Program-made: the position numbers and the translations under genes
Assembly (NCBI GenBank): GCA_963819655.1
Contig: CAWFXA010000003.1
Span: 32,001-96,000 of the forward strand
Direction of reading: 5' to 3'
Origin: an uncultured Chloroflexia bacterium
GTDB taxonomy: Bacteria; Chloroflexota; Limnocylindria; Limnocylindrales; CSP1-4
DNA: 64,000 nucleotides
Notes under the pieces: model-generated
Told to the model about the DNA's origin: nothing
The model's database searches: none
Seen by the model: only the letters and a program-made list of their open reading frames with translations
In this document: piece by piece, positions 39,998-62,379 of the stretch
How the letters are laid out: each line of letters begins with the position of its first letter
How positions within the stretch are numbered: the first letter of the stretch is position 1

Positions 39998-40074
39998 GCC
40001 GCATTCGTCTAGAGGCCCAGGACACCGCCCTCTCAAGGCGGAGATCACCGGTTCGAATCCGGTATGCGGTACCA
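39998..40074 (+). tRNA. tRNA-Glu (anticodon CTC)
   Basis: Acceptor stem GCCGCAT/ATGCGGT; anticodon arm CCGCC-CTCTCAA-GGCGG; T arm CCGGTTCGAATCCGG; encoded CCA; TATCCT -10 box at 39956. Confidence 0.96.
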
Positions 40075-40089
40075 AAATCGCCAGTTTCG

Positions 40090-40113
40090 GCCCGATCCAC
40101 GCTCGGATCGGGC
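40090..40113. terminator. Hairpin after tRNA-Glu
   Basis: GCCCGATCC-ACGCTC-GGATCGGGC. Confidence 0.6.
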
Positions 40114-40197
40114 TCGATTGCGATCGGCCTGCGGAAGGTCATCGCCTGGACGGACATCACCCGCGACCCGACTCGCTTCCGCTTCGACGGCCGATGA

Positions 40198-40623
40198 TCA
40201 GAGGGCAGTGACCTCGTCGCCGACGGAGATCACCCCATCGGTCAGGATGTCGGCGTTGATGCCGCCGCGGTGCACGAGGTCCCGGATGATCCCCGGGCGG
40301 GTCCGCTGCTCGAGTGATAGACAGGGCTCGCAGATCTCGACCCCGTAGCACTCGACCTCGCCGACCCGGAAGCGCCGGCCGATCAGCTCGTTGAGCCGCA
40401 CCCCGCGCACGGTCACCTGCCGGCGGGTGGCCCCCGGCGGCAGGCCGACCTCGTCGACGACCTCCTCCTCGACCAGCGTGAGGGCCTCGCCAGGATCGGC
40501 GCCGCCCTGGGCGTGGAAGTGGCGGTCGCCCTCGAGGCCCATGCCCGCCCGTGCCCGGACCGACGGCACCGGCGCGACCGGGCCGCCGTGGTCAGCGCCG
40601 AGGTGGATCGCGACGACCTGCAC
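40198..40623 (-). CDS. MOSC domain protein
   Basis: GLEGDRH, TRRQVTVRG, FRVGEV, ICEPC, RGGINADILTDGVISVGD. Confidence 0.88.
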   Translation of the reverse strand: MQVVAIHLGADHGGPVAPVPSVRARAGMGLEGDRHFHAQGGADPGEALTLVEEEVVDEVGLPPGATRRQVTVRGVRLNELIGRRFRVGEVECYGVEICEPCLSLEQRTRPGIIRDLVHRGGINADILTDGVISVGDEVTAL

Positions 40624-41045
40624 TCTGGGACCTCCTGCTGAGCCCGCGACCGCCCTTGGCGGGCATTCGTCAGGTCAAGGCTAACGCTGCGGCCCATCTT
40701 CCGTTAGTACCGTCAGCCGCTGGGAAATCAACGAGTACCTGACGCTGTTCTGAGCGATCACAAGGATGGGTGACCACCCAACACGCGGCCGGCTCGGTCA
40801 GCGCCAAGCCGGATACCTTCCCCTTGTTGGGCTACGTGTCACGGTCGGTCGGGACTCGTAGCCGCTCGAATCCGGCGGAGCGCCTAGGTTACTGGTCAGG
40901 CGAATTGCGTGGCGCTTCGGGTTTGTCGCGCAAGCACCCCTGTCCGGACAGGTCGCACGTCCGACTAGTGATTCGAGCGCGCCCGACAGGAACCCCGACG
41001 GCACCGGCGCCCCGGACTCGTCCGGGCCATCTCTCGGCGCCGGAC

Positions 41046-41189
41046 CTGAACCCCTATCTGAACCCTTATGGATCCTGTGTCTTGTGTCTCATGTGTCTCT
41101 TGGATGTACTCGTTGAACGCGGCTGAGACACATGAGACGGTTCACTAGGCATCCGGTATGCGGTACCACTACACCACGACATGTAGTGG
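41046..41189. other. att junction 1: arm-like repeats, 14-bp inverted repeat, att core and NrdR-box-like palindrome
   Basis: CTGAACCCCTAT-CTGAACCCTTAT 41046-41069; IR 41086-41099/41125-41138; core 41151-41168; CCACGACATGTAGTGG 41174-41189. Confidence 0.7.
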
Positions 41190-41248
41190 TTTGTTGCGGT
41201 TTGATGGTCGCGCCAACCTGTCCTCTCCGACCCCGAGGGCGCGGTCAG

Positions 41249-41624
41249 CTACAGGTCGACCTGGACCTCGCCGTTGGCGACGTGGAGGGGGTAGCTGCGC
41301 ACGGGGTCCTCAGCCGGACCGCGCACGACCGCACCGCTCGTGACGTCGAAGCGGCTTCCGTGGCAGGCACACTGCACCGTGGACCCGTCGAGCTTCCCAT
41401 CACCCAGAGAGCAACCCCTGTGGGTGCACGTGTCGTCGATGGCAAAGAGCGTCCCGGCCACGTTCGCGAGGGTGATCCGCGTTCCCTTGGAGCGACCGGC
41501 CCCGATCGTCCTTAGGAGCGGGATCCGGCTCCGACCGACCGCTTCGGCGCCGTGCTCAACGGACCTCGAACGCCCGCACATGCCCCGGCTCGACGTCGGT
41601 CGTGCGCGCAATGGTTCTCAGCAT
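41249..41624 (-). pseudogene. Rieske [2Fe-2S] ferredoxin interrupted by a 73-bp insertion (41489-41561)
   Basis: GAGGAGG RBS, MLRTIARTTDVEPGHVRAFEV, then insertion with a stop, then KGTRITLANV...CTH...CACHGSRFD; removing 73 bp gives a 303-bp ORF. Confidence 0.75.
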
Positions 41625-41684
41625 CTCTGAACCTCCTCGAAGGACCACTTTGATCTCTCGTCAGGTGTCGTGTCCGCATGGGCC

Positions 41685-42092
41685 TCAGTTCCCGACAAGG
41701 CCCGCGCGAGCGGATGGCGTCGAGTCCTGCGCAGTACTGTCGGGGCCCGCGAAGACGTAGACGATCATCGCGACCCAGCCAAGGCTGACGAGCCCCAGGA
41801 CGAGCAGCACGACGAACCAGGTCTTGTCATCGAGTCGGGACGTGTTGAGCAGCGCACCGACCCACGAGGCGATCGCGGCCAGCGTGCCCGCCGCCAGGAC
41901 GAGCGAGGCGACGATGAGAGCGGCGATGGCCCAGGCGAACGGTCCGCCGCTCAGGGTCACGACCTCGGAGCCACGGATGACGACCGCGCCATTTGCGAGC
42001 GCCGCCACGACGCCAGCGATCCCGATGGTCAACCCCACGACGACCGTGGCGATGGCACCGGCGAACAGCCGGGTAATGGTTGACTTCGACAT
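41685..42092 (-). CDS. Small membrane protein
   Basis: Several hydrophobic helices; DKTWFVVLLVLG...MIVYVFAGPD. Confidence 0.72.
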   Translation of the reverse strand: MSKSTITRLFAGAIATVVVGLTIGIAGVVAALANGAVVIRGSEVVTLSGGPFAWAIAALIVASLVLAAGTLAAIASWVGALLNTSRLDDKTWFVVLLVLGLVSLGWVAMIVYVFAGPDSTAQDSTPSARAGLVGN

Positions 42093-42125
42093 TTCGACTA
42101 CCTCGCTGTTGGAGTCCGATGACCC

Positions 42126-42521
42126 TTACTCCCCGATGACCTCGATCACCATGCCGGGATGCCATGTGCAGACGAACTGCGTAGTTCCCTTTGGCACCGT
42201 GGCGGTCACCGTCACAATGCCCCCGGACTCCATCGGGCCGGTGCTGACATTCAGGTCAGTACTGGTGAAGTTGTGGTTCGACTGCCCCGCGTTGCGCAGC
42301 TCGAACGTTGCCGGGACTCCCGCGTCAACCTGCACGCTCGCGGGCTGGAACGTGTCGTCCTGCATGACGATCTGCGTGGCGTCCTGTCCGCCCGGGCCCG
42401 GCCGAACATCACCGGCCGCGTTCTCGCCCAGCGCATTTCCATAGATGGCCGCGGCACCTGCACCGATCACGACGACCAGCAGCAGCGCCGCGACCCCGGC
42501 GACAATCATCCATCGACGCAT
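42126..42521 (-). CDS. Exported cupredoxin-domain protein
   Basis: Signal/TM; HNF...FVCTWHPGM type-1 copper ligands. Confidence 0.82.
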   Translation of the reverse strand: MRRWMIVAGVAALLLVVVIGAGAAAIYGNALGENAAGDVRPGPGGQDATQIVMQDDTFQPASVQVDAGVPATFELRNAGQSNHNFTSTDLNVSTGPMESGGIVTVTATVPKGTTQFVCTWHPGMVIEVIGE

Positions 42522-42605
42522 CTCGAATCCTCCTAGCCCGATAGGGCACTTATGGATCCGGCCGTTGGCGACGCCAGCGCAGTCCGGACCCGTAGTCCGG
42601 CCACG

Positions 42606-42663
42606 ACCGTATGTCTCAGAGAGTCGCGAGTCGTCACTCGGAAGTGCAGTAGCGGGGTGGAAT
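42606..42663 (-). promoter_or_regulatory. Island-2 operator copy 1 plus -10 box
   Basis: ATTCCACCCCGCTACTGCACTTCCGAGTGA, 22 bp, TACGGT. Confidence 0.72.
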
Positions 42664-42716
42664 TCCGACGAGGAACGAGCACCGTCCCGAGGTTGGCAAG
42701 CCCTGGTCGGCGGGCC

Positions 42717-43841
42717 CTACGAGCGGAGCCGCAGCCCGAGTACTCGTATCGTTCGAAGGAGCGCATCCACCACTGGACCCGGGGCACGGTCACCGATGTT
42801 GATCATGACGCCCAGCTGTCGACGGCCATCCGGCGTGCTGAGGATCATGGTCAGGAAGCCGGGGATCCCACCGGCGGCGCCGACCAGTGGCCCGCCGGGT
42901 GTGTCGGTCTCGATGATCCCCAAGCCGTTTCGGTCAAACAGGGGCAACGGGAGGGAGGCCCGTGGGACTGCGACGCTGGTGAGCATCTCTGATAACAGCT
43001 GGGACGGCAGTAGCTCGCCACCGAGTAGGGCCCGAAAGAAGAGCTGGAGATCCTGGAGATTCGAGATGAGCGCGCCCGCTGCCCAGGCATATGAGGGGTT
43101 CTGGGCAGTGAAATCGATCAGCGGGCCGTCCACCACGTCCAGCTGCGGAGTCAGTGGCAGGCTGTATCCGCGCGACATCGGGCTCGGGATGCCAGTGCCT
43201 GCGACAGGGAAGGACGTGTCGCGGAGTCCGAGCGGCCTGAGGATCCGCCGTGACAGCTGCGTGCCGAGCCTCGTGCCAGTCGCCGCCTCGATGATGAGCC
43301 CGAGCAGGGTGTACCCGACGTTGGTATAGGCCCACGCGGTGCCCGCCGGAAAGAGCTGCGGGCGATCGGCAACGAGTGCGACCTGCGCTCGCGGGGTCCA
43401 GGTGCGAAATCGTCCGTCTGGGGACCCATACAGCGAGCGCCAGAGCATTGGCGCGTTGTGGGGCACGCCACTCGTGTGGTTGAGGAGCTGCCTGATGTTG
43501 ATCTGGTCGCCATAGGACAGGACGCCCGGCAACCACCGCTCCACCGAGTCCGAGAGCGACAGCATGCCGTCCGCGACCAGCTGGAGCACGACCGCTGCGA
43601 CGAACGGCTTCGTCACGCTGCCCGCCCGAAAGTGCAGGTGAGGCTGCATGGCACGGCCGGTTCGAAGGTCGGCGACGCCGCTCGCGACCTGTGCGACGAC
43701 GCGCTCATCCACGATCCGCGCCGCGGCCCCGGGCGCACCGGCCGCCACTAGCTTCCTGACCAGCTGCAGCAGCTCACCGGGATCATCAACGATCCGATCG
43801 ACAACGGTGGTGGCCGAAGGGGCACGCGACATCTCGCTCAC
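42717..43841 (-). CDS. Serine hydrolase, beta-lactamase/D-Ala-D-Ala peptidase family
   Basis: FRAGSVTK (SxxK), LLNHTSG, WAYTNVGY (YxN). Confidence 0.88.
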   Translation of the reverse strand: MSEMSRAPSATTVVDRIVDDPGELLQLVRKLVAAGAPGAAARIVDERVVAQVASGVADLRTGRAMQPHLHFRAGSVTKPFVAAVVLQLVADGMLSLSDSVERWLPGVLSYGDQINIRQLLNHTSGVPHNAPMLWRSLYGSPDGRFRTWTPRAQVALVADRPQLFPAGTAWAYTNVGYTLLGLIIEAATGTRLGTQLSRRILRPLGLRDTSFPVAGTGIPSPMSRGYSLPLTPQLDVVDGPLIDFTAQNPSYAWAAGALISNLQDLQLFFRALLGGELLPSQLLSEMLTSVAVPRASLPLPLFDRNGLGIIETDTPGGPLVGAAGGIPGFLTMILSTPDGRRQLGVMINIGDRAPGPVVDALLRTIRVLGLRLRS

Positions 43842-44275
43842 CGTCCGCCCCCCTCGAGGAGTCCCTTGAGAACGCCCAAGTTCTCGGCCACAGACGAGCG
43901 GATACGGCCGCCAACGAGGTCGGTGAGGGGTCCAAGCGGCACCTGCGGATCAAGCTCAACGAGGTTCTTGAGCCGCGTTCCCTGGGCGGTCGGTTCGAGC
44001 TCGTATCTCACCCGGGCTCTGAATGCCCCGATCGATCCTTCGACCTCGACCGTTCGATCGGGGACGAGGCGGGTGAGCTCGAGGAGCTCGACGGCAGGCC
44101 GCGGTACCTCTCGAGTCTGTCGGTAGCGAGTCCCCACGCCGACCGGGCCCGGAGTCACCTTGCGGGTGCTCGTGATCGCCCAGTTCCATTCCGGGGTGTG
44201 CTCGAGGTCAGCGAGGTAGGTGTAGACGACTCGTGGATCCCGCGCGATCTCGAGGGTGTTCTCGAAGTGCATCAT
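43838..44275 (-). CDS. SRPBCC (polyketide cyclase-like) protein
   Basis: IARDPRVVYTYLADLEHTPEWN...GPVGVGTRY. Confidence 0.82.
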   Translation of the reverse strand: MMHFENTLEIARDPRVVYTYLADLEHTPEWNWAITSTRKVTPGPVGVGTRYRQTREVPRPAVELLELTRLVPDRTVEVEGSIGAFRARVRYELEPTAQGTRLKNLVELDPQVPLGPLTDLVGGRIRSSVAENLGVLKGLLEGGGR

Positions 44276-44317
44276 GATCTCCGTCCTCCGATCGATACGT
44301 AGGCCGCCGGCGCGTGA

Positions 44318-44893
44318 TCACGGGTCCCGCTCGTCTACCGGTGGCCGCGTCCGCAGATCGATCAGCTCGGCGACCCAGGCTCGGAGTCGACCGAGGTGCT
44401 CGCCGTAATGCTCCGCGCCGGCCTTGCGAACCCAGCGGTCGGCCGCGTCGTCTGGCTCGCGAAGTGCGAACCACGCCTGGAGCATCCAGATCCGGGCGCC
44501 GTTGGCCTGCGTCCACACGACGTCCCAGGGCTCGTCCTTGAGGGCCGCCAGCGTCGCGGTGCTCCGGCGGTCGGCATCGAACTCGTGCGGCTCGTACGAG
44601 TTGGCCGCGATGTTGATCAACTGCGTTTCCGCTTCAGTGAGCCACATCCCAAGGTGAGCGATGAGGTCCTTCGCACTCCAGTCGGGATCCACGAAGTAAC
44701 CGGGGGCGAGTCGCTCGCCGGGTGTCAACAGATTGGTGAGTGCCGTGATCTCCGCCCAGCGAGCACGCTCGATCTCGATCTCGGCGATCAGCGACTGGTC
44801 GAATGCCGGCCACGCCGGAGGGCCGGTGACCGGTAGGCGTAGACGACCGTTGAGCGCATCGGGGCTGCGACCGTCCTGCAATTCGTGCGCCAT
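44318..44893 (-). CDS. DinB/MDMPI-like protein
   Basis: DWSAKDLIAHLGMW...EHYGEH. Confidence 0.72.
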   Translation of the reverse strand: MAHELQDGRSPDALNGRLRLPVTGPPAWPAFDQSLIAEIEIERARWAEITALTNLLTPGERLAPGYFVDPDWSAKDLIAHLGMWLTEAETQLINIAANSYEPHEFDADRRSTATLAALKDEPWDVVWTQANGARIWMLQAWFALREPDDAADRWVRKAGAEHYGEHLGRLRAWVAELIDLRTRPPVDERDP

Positions 44894-44910
44894 GGCAAGC
44901 GCCTCCTTCG

Positions 44911-45345
44911 TTACTGTGGGGTTTGGCTACGGCTTGTGGTGCGGCCCGTCGCGGTCGACCGCTTCGATGCGTTTGTGCGCACGCCCTCCCAATACCAGCG
45001 AGCGCCTTCCCACGCGGGCTGCCCTTCGGGCGGCCGAGCCACGTAGGTCCAAGTCGGGTTGGGATGAGCGCGGTGGACGGGTCGAGCCATCGGGGCGGAG
45101 GCGGCGGGCCGGTGGCGAACGAGCGGCGTCGCCGACGGAACTCGATTGAGAAGAGCCTCATAGGCCGCCTGGATGGACAGAAACGTGGCCAGGCCTTCGC
45201 CACCCGCGCGGTCGGGATGGAATCGCTTCGCGAGCCGTCGGTAGGCGACCTTGATCTCCGCGGGCGAAGCGCCCGGCCGCAGGCCGAGCCGTGCATATGC
45301 ACCCGATCGGAGGCCGGATCGGTGTGTTCGATTGATCGTGGTCAT
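44911..45345 (-). CDS. Short J-domain (DnaJ-like) protein
   Basis: YARLGL...EIKVAYRRLAKRFHPD...IQAAYEAL. Confidence 0.78.
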   Translation of the reverse strand: MTTINRTHRSGLRSGAYARLGLRPGASPAEIKVAYRRLAKRFHPDRAGGEGLATFLSIQAAYEALLNRVPSATPLVRHRPAASAPMARPVHRAHPNPTWTYVARPPEGQPAWEGARWYWEGVRTNASKRSTATGRTTSRSQTPQ

Positions 45346-45364
45346 CGTCTCGTCCGATCTGCCG

Positions 45365-45742
45365 CTACCCGACGGTCAGGCTGCCGCTCATGTCCGGATG
45401 GACGTCGCAGCGGAAGAAGTAGGTGCCCGATCCCAAGGCCGGCACGTCATAGACGACGACAGCGGGGCCGCTGAACGGCTCCTCGACGAGGACCTTCTCG
45501 GCCGCCGACGCGTCCCGGTAGATCGCGACGTTGTGGAGGGCGGCTTCCTGGTTGTCGAAGACGATCTGGAAGGGCTTGTCGGCCGGGGCAGTCAACGAGG
45601 TCGTCGAGAATGCGAGGCCATTGGCCTCGATCGACAGGGCGTCCGGACCGACCGACGGCTGAGTGGTCGGGTTGGCCGAGCCTCCTGCACAGGCGGTCAG
45701 CGCAGCAATCGGGATGAGTAGGGAGGCGAGCAGCCTCATCAT
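45365..45742 (-). CDS. Cupredoxin-domain lipoprotein
   Basis: Lipobox-like LTAC; HNVAI...YFFRCDVHPDM. Confidence 0.85.
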   Translation of the reverse strand: MMRLLASLLIPIAALTACAGGSANPTTQPSVGPDALSIEANGLAFSTTSLTAPADKPFQIVFDNQEAALHNVAIYRDASAAEKVLVEEPFSGPAVVVYDVPALGSGTYFFRCDVHPDMSGSLTVG

Positions 45743-45781
45743 CGGAAGGCTCCTATCGGGGTGATCTGAACTTGCTTCCTG

Positions 45782-45839
45782 AGGCTAGGAGCCGGCCCCG
45801 CGGCGGTCGTCACCCGAAGGTGGATAGGGCAGGTGGAAT
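45782..45839 (-). promoter_or_regulatory. Island-2 operator copy 2 plus -10 box
   Basis: ATTCCACCTGCCCTATCCACCTTCGGGTGA, 22 bp, TAGCCT. Confidence 0.75.
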
Positions 45840-45980
45840 CCTGCATAGGCGAACTCGGGGGATCGAGTGGCGTCGCGCCACCGGGTGGCGGCGGGGCTCG
45901 GGTCAAGGCCGTCTTGCTGGCGCGACGGCCGGGACGCGGGCGGGTGCCGCTCGACGCTCAGGGCCCGGCGGGCTCCGACC

Positions 45981-46199
45981 TCACGAAGCTCGGGCGCGGT
46001 CGTCCTCGATTCGGCGTACCGAGATCAGCACCAGGCCGAGGTCATTTACTCTCGACAGCAGTCCGTGCAGCGCAGCCTGGTCCGCGACCTGACCCACGAT
46101 GAGCGTCTCGTTCTCGCCAATGGTCCGGACTTCGAGCCCGTCGAACCAGGATGACCAGCGCTCGTCGAGGAGTCCCTCGACCCGGATCTCGTAGCCCAT
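45981..46199 (-). CDS. Small ACT-like protein, copy A
   Basis: MGYEIRVEGLLDERWSSWFDGL...DQAALHGLLSRVNDLGLVLISVRR; homologous to 60855-61067. Confidence 0.78.
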   Translation of the reverse strand: MGYEIRVEGLLDERWSSWFDGLEVRTIGENETLIVGQVADQAALHGLLSRVNDLGLVLISVRRIEDDRARAS

Positions 46200-46242
46200 C
46201 AGACGCGGATGCCCATGTCGAGCCCAACCACATCGTCCCGCC

Positions 46243-47994
46243 TCATTTGGTCGATGACGCCGCGGAGCGGTATCGCTGAACCTGCTGGCTCGCCGCGGCA
46301 CCCTCGCCCACGGCAGCGGCAACACGTTTCATCGAGTCATGGCGGACGTCGCCCGCCGCGAAGACGCCGGGCATCGTCGTTTCGAAAGGCAGCCGGGTGT
46401 GCCCGTCAGCTGACGGCACGTCGTCGCCCGTCAGGACGAAGCCTCGCTCGTCGCGGGCAATCGCTGACGGCAGCCATGCTGTTTGTGGCTCGGCGCCGAT
46501 CAGCAGGAATAGGCCCGTCGCGTCGCGTTCATCGATCGTCCCAGCGGCGTTGTCGCGGATCACGAGCGAGCGCAATCGCCGGTGGTCCCTCGCCTCGGCG
46601 ATCTCGCTGCTGAGACGCACCTCGACGTTGGGCAGGTCGTTCAGCTGCTCGAGCAGGTACTCCGACACGGTCCCGGCAAGCGAGTGGCCACGCACGATGA
46701 CGGTGACCGTTCGGGCGTAGCGGGCGAGGTGGATGGCCGATTGGGCGGCCGAATTTCCGCCGCCCACGACCGCGACTGGCTCACCGGCCATCGCGCGGGC
46801 CTCCGTCGCCCCCGAGCCGTAGAACACGCCACGGCCGACGAGGCCTTCGACGCTCGGGATCCCGATCCGCCGATACGACGCGCCCATCGCCAGTACGATC
46901 GCCCGCGCCCGCGCCTCGGAGCCGTCATCGAGCAGGACGATGCGCTCATCACCGTCAGCCCGAATCCCGTTCGCACCTCGGCCTATTCGCGCCTGGACGC
47001 CGAACATCCACGCCTGCTGCCAGGCTCGCCGCAGGAGCTCCGCGCCGCTCAGGCCGCTGGGGAATCCGAGGAAGTTTCGGATCATTGGACTCGAGCCCGC
47101 CTGACCGATGCTCGGCTCGACCAGCAACACGCGCAAGCCTTCTGAACCGAGATTCACCGCGGCCGACAGGCCCGCAGGCCCCGATCCGAGGATGGCCACG
47201 TCGAACGGTGTCGAAAGGGGCTCGGCGTTCGCGCCGAACGCTTCGGCAACCTCGGATAGCGACGGACGCGCCAGGATCCGGCCGTCGGGCAAGACGGCAA
47301 CCGGCATCCGATCGCCCGGATCGAGCCCGGCGACAAGGCGGAGGCCTTCGGCCGTTTCGGCAACGACGAACCCCACGCGGGCTCCCCCCCAGCGTTCGAG
47401 GACATCGGCGAGAGCCTGCCCCTGGACATCGGACCGCTCGCTGACGATCGTGATTCCAGAGGTGAAGCGGCCGTGCTCACGTGCCCAGTCGGCCAGGATG
47501 TCGCCGACCAGCGCCAGGAACTGCTCGTCGGTCTCGTTCCAGGGCAGGCTCGCTTGATGGTCGATCTCGCCGAGCGTCGCTGCGCGGGCGATCGTCGGCA
47601 GTGCCGACAGGTCGGACCATCGCGTCACGACGAGTCGTCGTGCGGTCGGAAAGGCGTCCCGGGTGCGGGCCAGGAAGGCGGTTCCGGTCTCTGGTTTCAT
47701 CCATTGACCTGCGACGATGAGGGCGACATCGGCCGCCTTGTCCCGAAGACGCAACAGCTCATTGAACGCGGCGACGGGTCCCGGCAAGGACATGACGTCG
47801 TAGTCGGTCCCGTACCGCCTGTTGAGGCATTCCTCCAGGACGTCACGGGCGCTCCGATCGTCCTCGACGACGAGGATCGTGGGCCGGTTCTGCGTCGGGT
47901 TCGCTGCAAATGTGCTGGTTGGGACGTCCGGCGGCAATCGCCAGCCGGCTGCCCAGCGACTCCGTCCATCGTTCCCGAGGGTGCTCTCGCTCAC
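46243..47994 (-). CDS. Receiver-like domain fused to a thioredoxin-reductase-like FAD oxidoreductase
   Basis: ILVVEDD; ILGSGPAGLSAA; VVGGGNSA; PGVFAAGDVRH...RVAAAVGEG. Confidence 0.85.
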   Translation of the reverse strand: MSESTLGNDGRSRWAAGWRLPPDVPTSTFAANPTQNRPTILVVEDDRSARDVLEECLNRRYGTDYDVMSLPGPVAAFNELLRLRDKAADVALIVAGQWMKPETGTAFLARTRDAFPTARRLVVTRWSDLSALPTIARAATLGEIDHQASLPWNETDEQFLALVGDILADWAREHGRFTSGITIVSERSDVQGQALADVLERWGGARVGFVVAETAEGLRLVAGLDPGDRMPVAVLPDGRILARPSLSEVAEAFGANAEPLSTPFDVAILGSGPAGLSAAVNLGSEGLRVLLVEPSIGQAGSSPMIRNFLGFPSGLSGAELLRRAWQQAWMFGVQARIGRGANGIRADGDERIVLLDDGSEARARAIVLAMGASYRRIGIPSVEGLVGRGVFYGSGATEARAMAGEPVAVVGGGNSAAQSAIHLARYARTVTVIVRGHSLAGTVSEYLLEQLNDLPNVEVRLSSEIAEARDHRRLRSLVIRDNAAGTIDERDATGLFLLIGAEPQTAWLPSAIARDERGFVLTGDDVPSADGHTRLPFETTMPGVFAAGDVRHDSMKRVAAAVGEGAAASQQVQRYRSAASSTK

Positions 47995-48039
47995 GTGGTC
48001 TCCTCGATCAAGGCGGCGGCTGCCGCGCGGTTCTCGAAG

Positions 48040-48098
48040 ACGCTACGAGCCGGAGCTGATCGCGGTCATCACCCGAAGGTGGACGAGAGCGGTGGAAA
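48040..48098 (-). promoter_or_regulatory. Island-2 operator copy 3 plus -10 box
   Basis: TTTCCACCGCTCTCGTCCACCTTCGGGTGA, 23 bp, TAGCGT. Confidence 0.75.
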
Positions 48099-48115
48099 TG
48101 TCGCGATGGGTTCGG

Positions 48116-54507: not shown

Positions 54508-55679
54508 TGAGCATCCAAGGGCAGCGATCGATTGGTGGCGGGCCTCATGGCTCTCGCGTAATGCCGGACGCAGCACCGGATGGGACGGTCGCGGGCGCTC
54601 CGGTCGGGACGCCGGCGCAGCCGACGCCGAGCCGTCGGGCGATCGCGGGGCGCGCGGTCGTGCTCGTCGGGATCTTTCTGTTCGTGTTCGGGGTCGTGTT
54701 GCCGCGCCTGATCGACTACGACGCGGTTCGCGCCGCGCTCGCAGCGCTGACCCCCGGTCAGCTCGGGCTGCTCGGTGCCGCCAGCGTGGTCGCCTACGTC
54801 GCCAACGCCGGTCCGACCCGGGTCCTCGTGCCCGGGCTCTCATGGCCGCACGCAGTCGGGTCGGACCTGGCCGCGCGGGCGGTCGTCAGCACCGTGCCCG
54901 GGCCGACTGACGTTGCCACGCGGCTCGTCCTGTACCGCCAGTGGGCGATCCCCACCGCCATCGCGAGCGCCGGGATCGTCCTCGCGGCCCTGTTCGAGAC
55001 GTTCTCCTTGTTTGCCCTGCCGCTGACCGCCACCGCAGGTCTGCTCGTCACCGGTCACCCGGCCGAGTCGCGTGCGCTCCAGCTCGCGCTGATCGGCCTC
55101 ATCGTGCTGGTCGCCGGCGCGGTCCTGATGGTTACCATCGTGCGCTCGGAGGACCTAGCCCGGAGGCTGGGCGGCTGGCTCGACCGGATGGCCCAGCGCA
55201 TCTGGAAGTTCTTCCGGAAGACGCCGCCGACGGGCATCGTCGAGGGCATCCTGGACCTTCGAGAGCGCTCGAAGGCCATCCTCACGCAGCACGGCCTGCG
55301 CGGGTTCGTCGCAGCCGTGGTCGCCAAGCTCGCCTGGTTCGTCGTTCTCGAGATCGCCCTCTGGTGCGTCGGGGTCGGCCCAGATGTGCTCCCGCCGTCG
55401 GCCGTGCTGGCGGCGATGGCGGTCGTCGGGATGGTGTCGCTCATTCCCATCACGCCGGGCGGCGTGGGCGTCACCGAGGTCGCCTACATCGGCATCCTGT
55501 CGAGCGTGGCCGGCTCGGGGCTGACCGAGCAGCTCACGGCCGCCGTGATGCTGTTCCGGATCGCCCAATGGTTCGTCCCGATCCCGGTCGGCTGGGTGCT
55601 TCTGCTCGTGATGCGCCGGGGCCACTTGGGCGAGCTGCTCGGGGGTCCCGACAAGGTTCCGACGCCGTCTTCGAGCTGA
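54507..55679 (+). CDS. Lysylphosphatidylglycerol synthase TM (flippase-like) domain protein
   Basis: Multi-TM; IPITPGGVGVTE...AAVMLFRIAQW. Confidence 0.82.
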   Translation: MSIQGQRSIGGGPHGSRVMPDAAPDGTVAGAPVGTPAQPTPSRRAIAGRAVVLVGIFLFVFGVVLPRLIDYDAVRAALAALTPGQLGLLGAASVVAYVANAGPTRVLVPGLSWPHAVGSDLAARAVVSTVPGPTDVATRLVLYRQWAIPTAIASAGIVLAALFETFSLFALPLTATAGLLVTGHPAESRALQLALIGLIVLVAGAVLMVTIVRSEDLARRLGGWLDRMAQRIWKFFRKTPPTGIVEGILDLRERSKAILTQHGLRGFVAAVVAKLAWFVVLEIALWCVGVGPDVLPPSAVLAAMAVVGMVSLIPITPGGVGVTEVAYIGILSSVAGSGLTEQLTAAVMLFRIAQWFVPIPVGWVLLLVMRRGHLGELLGGPDKVPTPSSS

Positions 55680-55928
55680 TGGGAGCGCGCGTCGGCCGCG
55701 GTCGGCGACGCCGTCCTGGCCGCTCGGTGAGAGCGAGCTCCGAGTGCCAACGAAGTCCGTCGCTCGACACGCTGAGGTCACGACGCGAGCCGCGATGTCG
55801 CGGGGCTCCAGGATGCGCGCGGGCCGTAAAGCAGTCGCTCGAGGCCACGCGCGAGGCGCTCGTGTCCTGACGGGGCGAGCGATGCGGAGCACCGAGCGCG
55901 TGAGGCGCGGTGGCCCAGCCAATGGCCG

Positions 55929-55976
55929 AATTGGCCGAATCGTGGGACGACCGCTCATCCTCGCGGATCGGACGCT
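55929..55976 (+). promoter_or_regulatory. Island-3 operator copy 3 plus -10 box
   Basis: AATTGGCCGAATCGTGGGA-N7-TCATCC-N10-GACGCT. Confidence 0.62.
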
Positions 55977-56019
55977 TCGTCCCTATTCCACAGAGTTCAA
56001 TCGAAAGGAGAAGGTTCCA

Positions 56020-56588
56020 ATGCTTGGTTTGGTGGCGCGCGACTGGTGGGTGTTCGCGATCCGTGGCATCGCTGCGATCGTGCTCGGCATCCTCGCATTC
56101 ATCTGGCCTGAGAGGACGCTCACGGTGCTCGTCTTCCTGTTCGGCGCCTACTTCACTCGTCGACGGCGTCGCGCTGCTCGATCGCGCTCGCTCGCGGCGA
56201 CGCAGAGGCGCGGCGGGACGCCTGGGCCGTGGGGATCATGGGCGTCCTCGGCATCGTCGTCGGCGTCGCCACCTTCGTGTCGCCAGGCCTGACGGCTCTA
56301 ACGCTGCTGTACCTCGTGGCCTTCTGGGCGATAGCGACGGGCGCCTTCCAGGTTATCGCGGCCATCGCCCTCCGGCGCGAGCTCGAAGGCGAGTTCTGGA
56401 TGGCACTCGGCGGCGTGGCCTCGATCGTATTCGGCGCACTGCTCGTCGCCTCCCCCGGAGACGGGCTGATCACGCTCGTGTGGCTCGTCGGGATCTGGTC
56501 GGTCGTGTTCGGGGTCTCGAACCTCGGCCTCGCGAATCGGCTCCGTAAGGTCGACGCGGCCATGCCCGCGCCCGCCGCGCAGCACTGA
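56020..56588 (+). CDS. HdeD/DUF308 family membrane protein, frameshifted near 56150-56180
   Basis: WWVFAIRGIAAIVLGILAFIWP...; second frame LLYLVAFWAIATG...LVWLVG. Confidence 0.8.
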
Positions 56589-56652
56589 CCCGCTCGGGTC
56601 GCGATCGTCCACGAGGGCTGCATGCGACAGACGACTGTGTGGACAAACAAGA

Positions 56653-56692
56653 GCAGCGGTGGGAGCGGCGGCAACGCCGCTCCCACCGCTGC
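56653..56692. terminator. Perfect 18-bp hairpin with GCAA loop
   Basis: GCAGCGGTGGGAGCGGCG-GCAA-CGCCGCTCCCACCGCTGC. Confidence 0.65.
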
Positions 56693-56814
56693 GTGAGTTC
56701 GGCTGAGCCGACCAACATCAGGGAGGGCCAGGATGCCCGGGAGCGACGTAGAACGTGCGGGCGGCGGTGTCGTTGGGGATCGCCCGCGACGATGAGTCGC
56801 GCGCGGACGGGCTG

Positions 56815-57873
56815 ATGCTGTCCGCCGGCCCGCTCACGGCCATCGGCGGGCTCGTGCTCGTCCTCGTCGCGGTGCTCGCCCTACGCGAGGTGGCGTCGCT
56901 CGTCGTCCCGGTGGTGTTCGGTCTCTTCATCGCCCTCACCGCCTGGCCGATGGTCGGGGCGCTCGAGCGGCGTGGCGTCCGGCACGCGTTCGCGCTTGGC
57001 GGGAACGATGGCGGTCGTCCTTGCCATCGGTCTCGTTGCGGCCTGCGTAGCCGCGCTCTCGGTGGGCGAGCTGGCGGTCAAGATTCCCACGTACGAGAGC
57101 CGCCTGAGCGCTGCCCTCGCGGCCCTGCGCGATCTCCTTGGGCAGCTCGGGATCAGCGTCGATCTCGGCGCCATCACTGCGATCATCTCGCCGGAGAGGA
57201 TCTTCGGACTCGTCAAGCCCGTGGCGTCGGCCGTCTCCGAGGCCGGTGGCGCAATGTTCGTCCTCGCCTTCACCATGATCTATGCGCTCGCAGGCGGGAC
57301 GTCGCTCCGGGCGCGGGCGGTTGCGGCGTTCGGTGAGCAGCACGCGCTCCTGCTCGGCATGGAGCGGTTCGGTACCGACCTGCGACGCTACCTCGTCGTG
57401 CGAGCCAAGCTCGGGCTATTCGCCGCCGTGCTCTCGTTCGTGCTTCTAGCTCGTGCTCGGCGTGCCGTTTCGCCGTCCTGTGGGCGATCCTCGTATTCGC
57501 CGCTAGCTTCGTCCCGAACATCGGCGTCCGTGATCGCCGTCGTACCGCCGACGATCCTCGCATATCTCGACAGCGGGCTTGGCGACGGCGGCGATTGGTG
57601 GTCATCGGATATGCCGTCATCAACTTCGCCCAGGACCAGTTCCTCCAGCCGGTGGTCATGGGGAGCGAGCTCAACCTGAGCCCGCTGGTTGTCTTCATCG
57701 CGGTCGTCGTGTGGGTGTGGATCCTCGGCCCGGCTGGCGCGCTTCTCGCGGTCCCGCTAACGGTCGGGCTGGTCATGCTCCTCGAGGTGTTCCCCTCCTC
57801 GCGGGGCGTTGCCGCCGTGCTCCGCAACAACGTCGAGGCGCAGCCCGGGATGCGCGAGACGCTCGTGCCCTGA
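56815..57873 (+). CDS. AI-2E family transporter, several apparent frameshifts
   Basis: LVVPVVFGLFIA...RRYLVVRA...QPVVMGSELNLSPLVVFIAVVVWVWILGPAGALLAVPLT across frames. Confidence 0.78.
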
Positions 57874-57994
57874 CCGGCCGGCGGTCAGTTCGCCGGCTGC
57901 CCTGACCCGACGTACGCGAGGCGACGGCGAAAATGACGCCCTCGAAGGCCGGGAATGCACGTGACGGGATGACGCCGTCGGCCGACGGCCGCGC

Positions 57995-60661
57995 CTATCC
58001 GCGCCTCCGCGTCGCCGCGGCGAGCAGCCCGAGATCGCGAGCGCGTTCGACCGCCTCGGTGCGTCGATGGACGCCGAGCTTCTCGTAGACGTGGCGCATG
58101 TGGGTCTTGACCGTGCTCGTGGAGACGAACAGCTCGCCGGCGATGTCCGGTGCCGACAGGTTGCTCGGCAGGTAGCGAAGGACGCGAAGTTCGCTCTCGC
58201 TGAGCGGCTCGGCCAGGGTCGCCAGCTCTCCCACGCCGGCTGGCGGCAAGCCGGCATAGCATGCCGCGGATGTCGGTCAGCAGGGTGGCGTGAGCCGTTC
58301 GGTGGCGAGGGTGGCGATCGAGGAGATCCGTCCACGGGCGTGATGAGGAACGGGAAGACGACGGCGTCGGCCTCGGTCAACGTCGAGCGCACGCTCGACG
58401 TCCGCTTCCGCGGCGTCCCCCTGGCCGAGCCGCTCCCGGGCGAGCGCATCGATGAAGCAGCGCCTGGACCAGCGTGAACACGCGGATCACGGACGCCTCG
58501 CCGTTGAGGACCGGGGCGAGGACCTCGATGGCCGACGACGCGTCCTCGTCGGCGAGGTGGATCGCAGCCGCCGCGCACCGGGTCTCGCCCCAGTCGCGCT
58601 GTTCCTGACCGACTCGAGCGAGCGTGGCGCGCGCGGCCTCGCGCTGGCCCATCCGCAGACTGCGGTCTGGACGAGGAAGTTCCGCACGAGGGCGGTGTTG
58701 ACATGCATCGTGACGAGGGACGCCTGCGTTCGCTCGGCGGCCGCGAATACGCCGGCCGCCTCGTCGAGTTGACCCTCACCGAAGCGCTGGATGCCGCGCA
58801 CCAGGAACAGGAACAGCGCAGTGGCGGGCTCCACTTCCGTGCGCAGCGCGCGCTCTGCTCGATCGAGCCACTCGCCACCTTCGGCTATCCGACCCTGGGC
58901 GACGTCGACCGCCGCCATGGTCGCCAGCGCCATGCACGCGATCGGTTCGGTCTCCCAGCCGTGGCGCTCGGCGATCGCGACCGCCTCGGCCGTGACCGGC
59001 CGCTGCCGGGTCAGCGGCCGAGTCGGCAGGAGTGCCATGTGAGAGAGGCAGCCGATCTCGAGGTACGGCCGTCCGGCTCGACGCGCGAGCCCAAGGGCGT
59101 GCTCGAGGTCGCGTTCGGCATCGTCCGGGCGACGCGCCCACAGCTCGAGGATGCCGAGGTTCATCAAGGCCTTAGCGCGCGCGTCGTCTCCGAGGAGCAC
59201 CCCGTCGAAGGCGTTGGCTGCCGGCTCGAGGAGCGTGCGGACCTCGGCGAGCACGGACGCGTCGTCGCCGCGACGGCGCGCAAGGGCGAGCCGGGCGATG
59301 GCGAGGTTGAGCCCGAAACGTGCCCGCCGGTCGGGCGGAACGTCCTCGTGATGCTGCTCGGCCAGCGCGATGTACGACGCTGCGGTCCCGAGCGAATGGG
59401 CCGAGAGCTCCTGGTAGGCCATGAACGCCGCGAGCTCGGGCTCGCGTCGAACTTCCGCCGGTAGGGCCGCGAGGAGGCCGTCGACCGCCGCTCCCTGCCC
59501 GTCGAGCGAGAGCGTGAGGCCGTGCTCCGCGAGGAGGCGGCCCGCGTAGTCCCACGCCTCGGCTCGCTCGGCGTGGCGGACCGCCTCGAGCACGTTGCCA
59601 TGGGCGACGTACCAATCGGCGGCGGCGAGGTGAAGCTGGGGCACGTCCTCGGGGCTCGTGCGGCGGAGCTCCAGCCGCAGGAGATCTGCCAGCAAATGGT
59701 GGTAGCGGAACGTCGTCCTCGCCGCATCGACCGCCACGACGAAGGCGTTCTCGTCCTCGAGCCAGAGGAGGATTCGTTCGGACCCCATGGACCTGAGGAG
59801 GTGGTCTGCCAGCGGCCCGGTGACGTTGTCGAGGATCGAGGTTCGAAGGAGCAGGCGACGGACGTCCGCGGGCAGGCGGGCGAGCACCTCGGCGAGCAGG
59901 TAGTCGGCCACGGTCCGCTCATTGCCCGAGAACTCGGCGACGAAGCGGCGCGGATCCGGATGACCAGCGAGCGAGAGCGCGGCCAGGCGGAGCCCGGCTG
60001 CCCAGCCCTCGGTCCTGCCATGGAGCTGCGACAGGCTGTCGTCGTCGAGCCGGACGTGCGCCGCCTCCAGAAGTCTGTGCGTCTCGGCGAGGTTGAACCG
60101 CAGATCGGCCTCGCGAATCTCCGTGAGCTGGCCGGCCAGGCGCAGTCGATGGAGCCCGAGCTGCGGGTCGTGGCGCGTCGCCAGCACGATGCAGAGATGT
60201 TCGGGACGGCCCGCGATGAGTTCGGCGAGGTCGTCGCGCGCCAAAGCGGCGCGGAGTTCATGGAGGTCGTCGATCACCAGCAGGATCGGCCGATCGAGCC
60301 CGGCGAGCTGGGCGATCAGCCTCTGTACCAGGGCAGCACCGTCGAATTGCGGTGATGGAGCGAGCGGCGCAAGGACGGCGTCCGATCCGACGGCCGCGCG
60401 GAGCTGTTCGAGCACTGAGAGCCAGAAGCGCTGGGGGTCCTGCTCGTCCCGCCGGACCGAGACCCAGGCGGCGCGGTCGGCGAGGTTCGCTTCGTTGATC
60501 CACGACCGCAGCAGCACGGTCTTCCCGCTGCCAGGCGGCGCCGAGACGAGCGTGACGCCGCCTGCCAACCCGGCGGACAGGCGCTCGAAGAGGTCCGGCC
60601 GCGCGACAACGGACGGAGGGTGCGCACCCGAGGTGATCGAGGATGTCCTCACCTTGCGCAT
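57995..60661 (-). CDS. Second MalT-like STAND-TPR-LuxR activator, frameshifts clustered at 58250-58660
   Basis: APPGSGKT, LVIDDLH, TEGWAAGLRL, RYHHLLADLL; LuxR HTH LSESELRVLRYL...TVKTHMRHVYEKLG in ORF 57995-58249. Confidence 0.85.
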
Positions 60662-60800
60662 CGTCCCACGCCGGAACTCACCGAGGAAGGCAGGCGCGTG
60701 ATGGCCAGGACCAGGGCGACGGGCATTGCGATGCGACCCTGCTCAGTCTAACCCTTCGAGATTACCGACCTGGCCGGTCGGCCGGTCTTCGGCGGACCTC

Positions 60801-60848
60801 GATCGTCCTATCGGGATGATGCGGACTCATCCGCTCGAACACGACGCT
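60801..60848 (+). promoter_or_regulatory. Island-3 operator copy 4 plus -10 box (leaderless start at 60855)
   Basis: GATCGTCCTATCGGGATGA-N7-TCATCC-N10-GACGCT, with ATG 6 nt later. Confidence 0.72.
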
Positions 60849-60854
60849 CACGGC

Positions 60855-61067
60855 ATGCGCGATCTTCGGAATGGTGCCCGGTACGAGATCCGCATCCGTG
60901 GAATCCTGAGTGGAACGGTCGCCGGTGCCTTCTCGGGCCTCCTAGCCCGGGAGGATCGCGGCGAGACGGTGCTCACCGGCCGGCTCCCGGACCAAGCCGC
61001 ACTCCACGGAGTCCTTGCCCAGATAGAAGCGCTCGGACTCGAGCTCATTGAAGTCCGGCGTCGGTAG
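60855..61067 (+). CDS. Small ACT-like protein, copy B
   Basis: RYEIRIRGIL...ETVLTGRLPDQAALHGVLAQIEALGLELIEVRR. Confidence 0.78.
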   Translation: MRDLRNGARYEIRIRGILSGTVAGAFSGLLAREDRGETVLTGRLPDQAALHGVLAQIEALGLELIEVRRR

Positions 61068-61260
61068 AGGGAAACGCTCCTGGCGGACGCGCCTAGGGAC
61101 ATCTCAGGCCTCCAGCCATGACCCTGAGGCACGCCGATCGCTGCACACGTCGTCAGGGGGCCTGCGGACCGCGAGCAAGGAGGGTTGGCTCGCGTGTCGA
61201 CTCGCGGACCGGGCAAACTTGTGCGGGCGCAAGTCGAGGATGCCGCGTCTCGCGTAATTA

Positions 61261-61333
61261 GAACATCTGTTCTGTCGCGCCCGACAGGAGTTGAGCGCGC
61301 GGATGCCATAAATATCCGAATCCCGACTGAGGG
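61261..61333 (+). repeat. ~75-bp repeat copy B with LexA-box-like site
   Basis: GAACATCTGTTC then a 35-bp core identical to 52444-52478. Confidence 0.8.
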
Positions 61334-61488
61334 AGTCAACATTGGCATAATGGCCGAAGGCGCCTGATCGCTGACAGCTCCGGGAGTGGTCGGGCAGATG
61401 CCAGAGCGCAGGCTCACCAGTTGAGGCCTCTGACCCCTCGACCGGCGGCGTGGCCGTCGGCCGCCGTGAGTAAACGAGAGGAGTCCCG

Positions 61489-61950
61489 ATGAGCGCGAGA
61501 TCGATCGACGAGCTGGGTCCCGTCGACTACCTGGTGGTCGAGTTTCCGGCGGGGCAGCAGAACTTCACCGGCGAGGCAGTCGACCAGCTCCTGCGGTTGC
61601 ATGACTCGGGGATCATCCGGGTCATGGACCTTGTCATCATCGGCAAGGGCGACGACGGGACGGTCATGGCCCAGGAGCTCGCCGACCTCGACGACATGGG
61701 CGAGTTCGCCCGGCTCGAGACCGAGCTGGCCGAGACCCTCGCCGAAGAGGACGTCCTGAAGGTTGGGGCGACGATGGAGCCCGGTAGCCTGGGCGCCGTG
61801 CTCGTCTACGAGAACCTGTGGGCCGCAGGGTTCGCCTCGGCCGTCCGCCATGCCGGCGGCCAGCTGGTTACCCAGGGCCGGATCCCGATCCAGGCCATCA
61901 TCGCCGCCGTCGAGGCGGACGAAGCGGCGCTTGTCGCCGAAGGAGTCTGA
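61489..61950 (+). CDS. DUF6325/DUF1269-like protein
   Basis: LGPVDYLVVEFP...IRVMDLV...LVYENLWA...GGQLV..GRIP; GAGGAG RBS. Confidence 0.8.
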   Translation: MSARSIDELGPVDYLVVEFPAGQQNFTGEAVDQLLRLHDSGIIRVMDLVIIGKGDDGTVMAQELADLDDMGEFARLETELAETLAEEDVLKVGATMEPGSLGAVLVYENLWAAGFASAVRHAGGQLVTQGRIPIQAIIAAVEADEAALVAEGV

Positions 61951-61951
61951 G

Positions 61952-62134
61952 ATGCCGCTCCGATCATCGCGTCTGGGCAGGGCAGCGGTCGTAACGGCCG
62001 CCGTCACGCCGGGACCGTCGCCCATCGCCAAGGCCGCCGTCGTTGGTGCCGCCGTTTCGAAGCCCGGGCCCGCCCCGATCGCCAAGACCGCTGTCGTCGC
62101 GGCGGCCATCACCCCGGGGCGCCGCCGCTTCTAG
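61952..62134 (+). CDS. 60-aa protein with three tandem AAVV.AA..PG repeats
   Basis: AAGGAG RBS; MPLRSSRLGRAAVVTAAVTPGPSPIAKAAVVGAAVSKPGPAPIAKTAVVAAAITPGRRRF. Confidence 0.6.
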   Translation: MPLRSSRLGRAAVVTAAVTPGPSPIAKAAVVGAAVSKPGPAPIAKTAVVAAAITPGRRRF

Positions 62135-62345
62135 TCGACGATCATGCCGTCCGCGGGCGTGGGACCCTCCTCGACGCGCCGGATCGCGCCGCGCGGGGAT
62201 GCTGCTGGCCGAGCCTCGCGCAAAGGTGACCCATCGAGGTCTCGATGGTCTGCGGGGTGCGGGCTGCCGGTCGGTCGCGGTGGCAAGTAGTTTGGGGCGC
62301 ACAGGTGCGAGCCGCCCTTCACGACCATCCGCGGGAACCGCTCGT
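62131..62345 (-). pseudogene. C-terminal remnant of a formylglycine-generating enzyme (SUMF1/FGE family)
   Basis: PRMVVKGGSHLCAPNY and, in a shifted frame, AARTPQTIETSMGHL; cut off at the att copy. Confidence 0.7.
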
Positions 62346-62379
62346 CGGTATGCGGTACCAATCGCCCCGAGCTGTATTT

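Follow-up and report, generated by a model that had tools for sequence, protein, structure and literature searches.

The 64-kb stretch of DNA analyzed here (the window; positions 32,001 to 96,000 of contig CAWFXA010000003.1, from an uncultured Chloroflexia bacterium) carries a single tRNA gene, coding for a tRNA-Glu(CTC) with an encoded CCA, at 39998-40074 on the plus strand (ARAGORN; Rfam 61.6 bits). The 22 kb that follow are divided by direct repeats of the tRNA 3' end into a tandem array of units, which is our subject. The exact 18-mer ATCCGGTATGCGGTACCA, referred to as the core, is present at 40057-40074, 41151-41168, and 52202-52219 (copies 1 to 3), and a fourth copy at 62343-62360 matches at 15 of 18 positions, the exact stretch being the 15-mer 62346-62360. 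All four are plus-strand copies in direct orientation, with core-to-core distances of 1094, 11051, and 10141 nt. No further matches with up to three mismatches are found on either strand of the window (total of four), and dinucleotide shuffles give a mean of 0.03 matches each (n = 100), with none yielding four. The mismatch scan, shuffles, and spacings thus bear out the repeat positions, the direct orientation, and the division into units of ~1.1, ~11, and ~10 kb reported in an initial annotation of this DNA.

Copy 1 forms the 3' end of the tRNA gene and spans the last two T-loop bases, the 3' T-stem, the 3' acceptor stem, and ACCA; tRNA-Glu(CTC) is the integration target. The left flanks of copies 2 to 4 were considered as decayed tRNA genes, but 437, 1261, and 443 of 2000 shuffles, respectively, score equally well, and being no more tRNA-like than shuffled sequence, the core copies are not tRNA pseudogenes.

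Occupancy of the site in relatives

A lyase-like gene ends 78 nt before the tRNA gene, and one genome scan with it provided the relatives for comparison, drawn from the best 80 of 182 confirmed matches; these loci are from Chloroflexota metagenome-assembled genomes (MAGs), either Candidatus Limnocylindrales or uncultured Chloroflexia. Of these 80, 16 (L001 to L016) are syntenic, with an alpha/beta-hydrolase gene, the lyase-like gene, and tRNA-Glu(CTC) in the same order, and about 3 to 10 kb downstream of the tRNA is visible in each. The tRNA is identical to that in the window at 76 to 77 of its 77 nt in all 16, and the upstream 3.4 kb aligns at 72 to 94% up to the last tRNA base in every one of them. 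Immediately after the CCA, similarity to the window is lost in all 16, as for the most part is similarity among them, with only L007 and L013 sharing 40 nt more with the window. None of the 16 carries the window cargo at the tRNA (27 island proteins and the META protein; E <= 1e-5), other than two domain-level matches to GerE in L008 and to a beta-lactamase-fold protein in L011. With the cargo absent from all 16 and the break in synteny lying at the repeat, the 22 kb is not an invariant block, in keeping with the variable locus proposed initially.

The relatives also show what lies at the site in the absence of an element. A conserved downstream block, of which a DUF1611 gene is the first, begins 10 to 50 nt past the tRNA in L004 and L016, and these two sites are empty. 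The same block is displaced to 2.0 to 8.2 kb past the tRNA in nine further relatives, so that it is reached in 11 of 16, and it is not reached within the visible 3 to 10 kb in L001, L002, L005, L007, and L008. It is absent from the window, where copy 4 is followed by a META-domain gene (62380-63852, minus strand) whose stop codon is 20 nt from the core; the META gene is in turn absent from the best 80 of the 182 loci. The initial annotation described three islands between the tRNA and the META gene. The three blocks stand, but the META gene as the native right flank is unsupported, and with the META gene absent from the relatives and the DUF1611 block absent from the window, "three" should read "at least three." We also asked whether copy 4 has the native attB side on its right, but the likeness of that flank to the terminator behind copy 1 is no better than that of 963 of 2000 shuffles, and no match to the relatives' flanks is significant, the best being to L015 (106 of 2000 shuffles).

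Attachment arms and the search for an integrase

The internal core copies 2 and 3 are exact (18/18) and are flanked by conserved sequences resembling the arms of attachment (att) sites, making each of them a P-core-P' junction. At junction 2, the P arm (41034-41150, plus strand) contains paired arm-type sites, GAACCCCTAT at 41048-41057 and GAACCCTTAT at 41060-41069, and a 14-bp hairpin with arms at 41086-41099 and 41125-41138; it is homologous to the P arms of L001 (78%), L002 (85%), and L011 (82%), with identities ranging up to 90%. The P arm at junction 3 (52087-52201, plus strand; profile match E 1.2e-28, itself in the training set) has an arm-type site at 52112-52121 and a hairpin (arms 52139-52151 and 52167-52179) in the same position as that of junction 2 but with a different sequence, the pairs being preserved through changes on both sides; the two hairpins are 13 to 14 bp long. 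To the right of both copies, the P' arms start with palindromic CCAC..GTGG sites. That of unit 3 (52220-52333, plus strand) has a hairpin (z -2.53) and paired arm-type sites at ~52297-52315 (TGACCCTTCT and GGACCCTTAT), in a layout that matches the P' arms of L008, L010, and L011. The P' arm of unit 2 (41169-41215, plus strand) is truncated at about +45; it lacks arm-type sites, retains a single palindromic site (the first, CACTACA..TGTAGTG), and folds no better than shuffles (z +0.72); the stop codon of a Rieske gene follows close behind at 41249. The arms around copies 2 and 3 are about 76% alike, and copy 4 has no recognizable P arm on its left side. Units 1 and 2 thus end in exact cores, and unit 3 ends in the 15/18 core lacking a P arm.

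These arms are specific to the core and recur beside it in other genomes. Allowing one mismatch, GAACCCTTAT has four matches in the 64 kb, where 0.41 are expected, and all are within 110 nt of copy 2 or 3. Seven GARCCCTTAT pairs are found, in the window, L001, L002, L007, L011 (two), and L013, and all seven have 12-nt spacing, are on the plus strand, and lie beside cores. A conserved P arm is present to the left of the core at window copies 2 and 3 and in L001, L002, and L011, and a conserved P' arm to its right at the same two window copies and in L001 (twice), L002, L008, L010, and L011. Because the conserved arms recur beside the same core in other genomes, we conclude that the four core repeats are att sites and that they belong to one element family. 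The GARCCCTTAT pairs and the hairpins are putative binding sites for the integrase or accessory proteins.

The exit from the tRNA gene itself is a terminator-like hairpin at 40075-40114 (plus strand; -27.9 kcal/mol, z -2.56), 40/40 identical in L007 and 39/40 in L013, and resembling both the post-tRNA flank of L015 and the flank after the closing core of L002 (0 of 2000 shuffles each). In L007 and L013 the hairpin is followed by paired arm sites at about +65; homology to the window ends at +40. Most P' arms, and the empty sites as well, have a hairpin immediately behind the CCA, and these hairpins would serve as terminators for the restored tRNA. Searches with nhmmer using the P-arm and P'-arm alignments against the window and the best 80 of 182 loci give no further full-length arms; the strong matches are the training sequences, and the new partial ones are the arm sites of L007, a hairpin fragment in L014, and a piece in L011. 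A distant-mode comparison of the junction regions (40640-41260 and 51950-52710) with a phage collection gives no match.

Element-type DNA lies directly behind the tRNA in 7 of the 16 relatives, as a palindromic P' arm in L001, L002, L008, L010, and L011, and as the terminator hairpin followed by paired arm-type sites in L007 and L013. Three of the 16 have a unit closed by a second core copy, each preceded by a P arm and with different cargo in each: L001 (3.0 kb; second core 18/18; a Phd/YefM-PIN pair), L011 (5.1 kb; 17/18; an ECF sigma factor and others), and L002 (7.6 kb; 15/18; GH1, GH16, an ABC transporter, and LacI). The second core of L001 is followed by another P' arm, so that L001 has an array too. 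Partial cores occur within a few hundred nucleotides of the tRNA in L001, L010, L011, and L014, and, with an indel, in L007. Nested deletion states are seen for a 280-nt segment that starts with a degenerate core (GCATGCGGGGTACCA in L007); its distance from the tRNA is 627 nt in L007, where the integrase remnant described below lies in between, and ~141 nt in L011 and L008, where it directly follows the arm sites. Matches to the last 10 bases of the core number 34 on the plus strand and 5 on the minus strand. Among the P' arms, those of L008 (11126, minus strand) and L011 (12349, minus strand) contain an exact inverted copy of these 10 bases, TGCGGTACCA, ~80 nt past the tRNA and just ahead of the paired arm-type sites; this may be an additional, putative integrase-binding site.

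None of the window units codes for a recognizable mobility function. We scanned 38 start-to-stop open reading frames (ORFs) together with 225 stop-to-stop ORFs, out of 239 that overlap 39900-62500 in six frames and reach 60 aa, the 14 omitted being genes already covered by the start-to-stop scan. The six-frame Pfam scans of 39900-62500 match no recombinase (serine recombinases included), integrase, transposase, relaxase, or phage-specific family in the units, and PHROGs and NCBIfam scans of 36 ORFs give generic domain matches only, so that the integrase profiles agree with the initial annotation, which had seen no intact recombinase, transposase, relaxase, or phage gene there. Upstream (1-39900), composition filtering left 49 ORFs of at least 110 aa, of which 44 were scanned, with 3 more covered separately and 37772-38101 and 38801-39373 left out; no recombinase (integrases included), transposase, relaxase, or phage-specific family is found among the 44, and no integrase in 39900-64000; this 40 kb is occupied by housekeeping genes, including those for a 2-oxoacid dehydrogenase, lipoyl synthase, adenosine deaminase, acyl-CoA dehydrogenase, and BatA/VWA/MoxR proteins.

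In the relatives, the integrase scan covered 148 of 166 ORFs of at least 130 aa in the variable segments of 12 of the 14 non-empty loci, L005 and L012 being left out as near-duplicates of L006 and L003. The sole Phage_integrase match is in L007 (E 3.3e-9), which is the closest relative (93.8% upstream DNA identity). It is a C-terminal match of 57 residues (profile positions 113-169 of 172), lying ~240 to 410 nt after the tRNA on the minus strand and reading toward the tRNA, and its translation includes HALPHTF...LGH...RYSH. L013 keeps only the last 24 codons of this remnant. A tblastn search with the remnant gives a best window match of only E 6, and among the best 80 of 182 loci it finds only L013 (E 5e-8). 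Six-frame scanning of the L001, L002, L010, and L011 units and of the proximal portion of L008, with another 142 ORFs of at least 70 aa, yields no integrase, and none of the three closed units of the relatives, examined for integrase only, has one. No relaxase or conjugation remnant is found in the window units, in the variable-segment ORFs of the relatives, or in the additional six-frame ORFs scanned. We note that the L007 remnant frame (12363-12692, minus strand) runs stop-free over the paired arm-type sites (translated as DKGSDKGS), the terminator hairpin, and the tRNA; attP and the 3' end of the integrase gene may have shared sequence when the element was intact, or the frame may be open simply because the DNA is GC-rich.

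Gene content of the units

The window is ~70% GC, and ORFs were chosen by codon-position GC prior to the Pfam, NCBIfam, and PHROGs scans; GC content is 0.673 to 0.689 in the units, with unit 1 at 0.673, compared to 0.701 upstream. Unit 1 (40075-41150; 1.1 kb) has a MOSC-domain ORF (40198-40623, minus strand; Pfam MOSC 4.5e-9) followed by ~500 nt of non-coding DNA that ends in the P arm, and MOSC is the sole family matched in its six-frame scan. Units 2 and 3 have about 9 to 12 genes each, on both strands, and their own MalT-like regulators. The designation of all three as cargo islands therefore holds for units 2 and 3, which carry multi-gene cargo, and not for unit 1, a 1.1-kb remnant with one small MOSC gene.

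The cargo of unit 2 (41169-52201; 11.0 kb; Pfam and NCBIfam) is encoded mostly on the minus strand, in the order Rieske protein (41249-41611), an ORF (41685-42092), cupredoxin (42126-42521), a beta-lactamase-fold serine hydrolase (42717-43841), SRPBCC (43838-44275), an ORF (44318-44893), a DnaJ-domain protein (44911-45345), a second cupredoxin (45365-45742), a thioredoxin-reductase-like protein (46243-47994; TIGR01292 E 8.7e-59, below cutoff), and a 1,058-aa MalT-like LuxR regulator (48116-51292); two ORFs (51200-51700 and 51702-51941) are on the plus strand. The serine hydrolase is far under every NCBIfam beta-lactamase cutoff and is thus not called a resistance gene. The thioredoxin-reductase-like flavoprotein has a ~260-aa N-terminal extension with a weak receiver match (Pfam E 7.6e-4, below cutoff), and is possibly a redox enzyme fused to a signaling domain.

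Unit 3 (52220-62345; 10.1 kb; Pfam and NCBIfam) codes for DUF1269 (53209-53715, minus strand), and, on the plus strand, DUF1003 (54064-54507), a flippase-like LPG_synthase_TM protein (54507-55679), a DUF308/HdeD-like protein in two frames (55612-56289 and 56112-56585), and an AI-2E transporter in two frames (56752-57333 and 57337-57870). A MalT-like regulator in two pieces follows on the minus strand (58487-60661 and 57998-58276), ~47% identical to that of unit 2, and then, on the plus strand, an ORF (60726-61067), DUF6325 (61489-61950), and a 59-aa Pro/Ala-rich ORF (61954-62133). The last of these is directly after the DUF6325 gene, is Pro/Ala/Val-rich with internal repeats TPGPSPIAKAAVV and KPGPAPIAKTAVV, and has no family match. 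Three unit 3 genes, the MalT-like regulator and the two membrane-protein genes (DUF308 and AI-2E), are broken by frame. The housekeeping lipoyl synthase gene upstream is also split over two frames (12570-13181 and 13078-13797, with LIAS_N in one and Radical_SAM in the other), which suggests indel errors in the assembly, and because of this the split unit 3 genes are not callable as pseudogenes.

Units 2 and 3 also share non-coding sequences. A ~34-nt motif, GTCGTCACCCGAAGGTGG...GGTGGAAT, is upstream of four unit 2 transcription units (42630-42663, 45806-45842, 48065-48097, and, inverted, 51078-51111), with constant orientation relative to the downstream gene, and a related motif sharing GGTCGTCACCCG is upstream of two unit 3 genes (53774-53807 and, inverted, 55929-55962). 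Together with the MalT-like regulator in each unit, these motifs are compatible with putative unit-specific regulons. Where two of the units were initially considered complete regulons, each does carry a regulator and shared upstream motifs, but the regulator and two membrane-protein genes of unit 3 are broken by frame, which could also be assembly error, and completeness is not supported. In addition, a 69-nt non-coding repeat at 52424-52492 (plus strand), ~205 nt to the right of core copy 3, is 88% identical to 61256-61324, ~165 nt upstream of the DUF6325 gene. It contains GCGCGCCCGACAGGAGTTGAGCGCGCGGATGCCATAAATATCCG, and the repeat core, GCGCGCCCGACAGGA, is also present at 40977-40991; short related pieces occur past the tRNA, within the variable DNA of four relatives (L001, 4136-4152 and 5732-5752; L002, ~12446-12500; L007, 13260-13281; and L013, 15584-15610). 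The segment 61263-61276 begins with a palindrome, AGAACATCTGTTCT, which resembles a GAAC-N4-GTTC LexA box. The 69-nt repeat matches no Rfam family at the gathering threshold, at which tRNA is the only match in the whole window, and it is a candidate for a shared promoter or operator that came from an element.

As a further observation on cargo, the 3-kb unit of L001 is a minimal integrase-less unit carrying a toxin-antitoxin pair (6140-6806, minus strand), with a Phd/YefM antitoxin (E 1.9e-11) and a PIN-domain toxin (E 6.4e-13) adjoining the P arm.

Origin of the array and comparison with known systems

We propose that the array probably reflects tandem accretion of tyrosine-integrase elements at an integration hot spot, followed by decay to relics resembling cis-mobilizable elements (CIMEs). 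The tRNA-Glu(CTC) 3' end would be the hot spot for one tyrosine-integrase element family in a Limnocylindria-like Chloroflexota lineage. An incoming circular element would recombine through the 18-bp core spanning T-loop to CCA, such that its P' arm becomes the new 3' flank of the tRNA and supplies the hairpin, and a core copy remains at the far end of the element behind the P arm. Repeated integration into any resident core copy would stack elements in tandem and yield chimeric P-core-P' junctions such as those at copies 2 and 3, and later deletions, in what is the presumed order of events, would strip integrase modules and parts of the arms. The residue would be a 1.1-kb stub, an 11-kb block of redox and copper-protein genes, and a 10-kb block of membrane and stress-protein genes, the latter two with paralogous regulators. 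The units are presumably unable to move alone at present, although the cognate integrase of a newly arriving element could recombine their intact cores. The initial annotation left open whether the modules are mobilized in trans or are relics of larger elements; the integrase remnant in the closest relative and the frequent truncated arms and partial cores lend better support to relics, and less to mobilization in trans.

Several observations weigh against this proposal. An intact integrase of the family is found in none of the three window units, none of the three closed units of relatives, and none of the ORFs scanned in 12 of the 14 non-empty relatives, and so the parent element is deduced from a single remnant. 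The remnant motifs, of the box II type of tyrosine recombinases, include HALPHTF, with a proline where a catalytic arginine is normally found. An integrase more than 3 to 10 kb from the tRNA in the relatives, or elsewhere in their genomes, would be missed. Three cores are still 18/18 though only the tRNA copy is under obvious selection, the outer homology limits of the arms are fairly sharp beside unrelated cargo, which fits cassettes moved in trans as well, and the native right flank of the window array is not found.

The units could instead be active integrase-less cassettes, att-bounded modules that are captured, excised, and reshuffled by an integrase acting in trans or in cis and provided by a helper element or a chromosomal gene elsewhere, either as active CIMEs or as a tRNA-anchored integron-like platform. 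We consider this rather unlikely. All six closed units (window units 1 to 3 and those of L001, L002, and L011) lack an integrase, which favors it, but survivorship bias alone explains the dominance of such units, since elements still able to excise get lost. Exact cores at three window positions, P/P' arms with paired sites that persist beside wholly unrelated cargo in different species, and the Phd/YefM-PIN pair of L001, of a kind frequent in mobile cassettes, all fit active cassettes, and cis-mobilization of such elements is documented elsewhere (PMC6323972, PMC5704250). However, no helper integrase is found in the scans of the 64-kb window or of the fetched loci, no unit is found in two genomes, the P' arm at copy 2 is truncated and the P arm at copy 4 is missing, and core remnants in the relatives are degenerate. 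Moreover, P-arm identity between genomes (78 to 85%) is not above that of orthologous upstream DNA in the same pairs (79 to 85%), and thus points neither to recent spread nor to added constraint on the arms. That the tRNA-Glu locus is a working cassette platform, at which integrase-less multi-gene modules with standard P/P' arms (paired GARCCCTTAT sites, a hairpin, and the 18-bp core) are captured, stacked, and exchanged by a tyrosine integrase from elsewhere in the genome or from a transient helper, is in our estimate quite improbable; if true, it would be a functional analogue of the integron built on lambda-type att sites at a tRNA gene.

Two further explanations dispense with mobile elements altogether. 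The repeats could be duplicated tRNA-Glu fragments or chance GC-rich matches within 22 kb of ordinary lineage-specific chromosome, with which the absence of a mobility gene and the lack of arm features at copy 4 agree; this is very improbable, as chance is excluded by the shuffles, the left flanks are not tRNA-like, five genomes have arm-type pairs and hairpins next to the core, the sites of the relatives are empty or differently filled, and L007 has an integrase remnant at the homologous position. A contig chimera joined at short repeats, as an assembly or binning artifact, is scarcely credible either. The genome is probably a MAG, and the frame breaks in the lipoyl synthase and the three unit 3 genes suggest indel errors, but assemblers are not misled by a repeat as short as 18 nt, the copy 2 and copy 3 arms match at only about 76%, composition does not shift at the junctions, and other species, assembled independently, have the same architecture at the same tRNA.

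No new principle is involved, since tandem accretion is already established, as are att-bounded islands that lack an integrase. A gene-flow hot spot is documented here, with exact breakpoints and att-site anatomy, in a widespread, uncultured class of soil and freshwater Chloroflexota, and the conserved core and arm motifs provide a signature for finding integrase-bearing parent elements in metagenomes and for measuring island turnover between closely related populations. A literature search on integrases in Limnocylindria gave a single paper, which is unrelated to judge by its title.

Like integron arrays, the locus has integrase-less cargo units at one site, each ending in a short conserved site with a hairpin. 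Unlike for integrons, the scans reveal no intI/attI/Pc platform in the 40 kb upstream or the 24 kb downstream; the window units are multi-gene, on both strands, and have their own regulators, whereas integron cassettes are mostly single promoterless ORFs ending in attC, and the window repeat is a tRNA-derived core with lambda-like arms, unlike attC. With no intI/attI/Pc beside the array and no single-ORF attC cassettes, we reject the integron interpretation.

The likeness to classical tRNA islands and prophages is closer. A T-loop-to-CCA identity block is reportedly one class in the sublocation scheme of Williams (2002) for tyrosine integrases at tRNA genes, and the window has such a block, a tRNA restored by element DNA, and arm-type repeats on both sides; in L007 the integrase gene, albeit a remnant, adjoins the intact tRNA, as in classical islands. 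Repeats of the tRNA 3' end, a variable site, and predicted attP-type arms are all present, and an integrase inside the element is absent. The window units differ from classical islands in that they lack both integrase and excisionase, and several elements are stacked and eroded.

Within the phylum, tandem islands at ssrA in Dehalococcoides are each bounded by a 20-bp direct repeat of the tmRNA 3' end, and several lack an integration module, which where present is on the reverse strand beside attL; the authors suggest that these islands are cis-mobilizable or fixed (PMC3146451). The window array is similarly tandem, downstream of a small stable-RNA gene, and inserted in the T-loop region. It differs in its target (tRNA-Glu(CTC), not tmRNA) and Chloroflexota class, in its recombinase trace (a tyrosine-integrase remnant, compared to the serine recombinase DsiB module there), and in cargo, with redox, copper, and membrane-stress genes here and reductive dehalogenases there (PMC3146451). 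The resemblance to the ssrA island family is architectural only.

The CIMEs related to ICESt1 and ICESt3 of Streptococcus thermophilus provide a further comparison (PMC5704250, PMC6323972). The window differs in showing no conjugation or relaxase remnants, so that descent from an integrative and conjugative element (ICE) or integrative and mobilizable element (IME) is unsupported, and in its uncultured Chloroflexota host. No helper element or mobilization is observed at the window locus, and some of its att arms are truncated, whereas a CIME by definition keeps functional attL and attR. Both are nonetheless att-bounded and lack integration and transfer genes, and the window units, like CIMEs, are in tandem beside the 3' end of the target gene, with chimeric internal att junctions. 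CIME formation by decay and then accretion has been described (PMC5704250), and the history we propose for the window is of the same kind, with integration, decay, and further integration into a resident att site.

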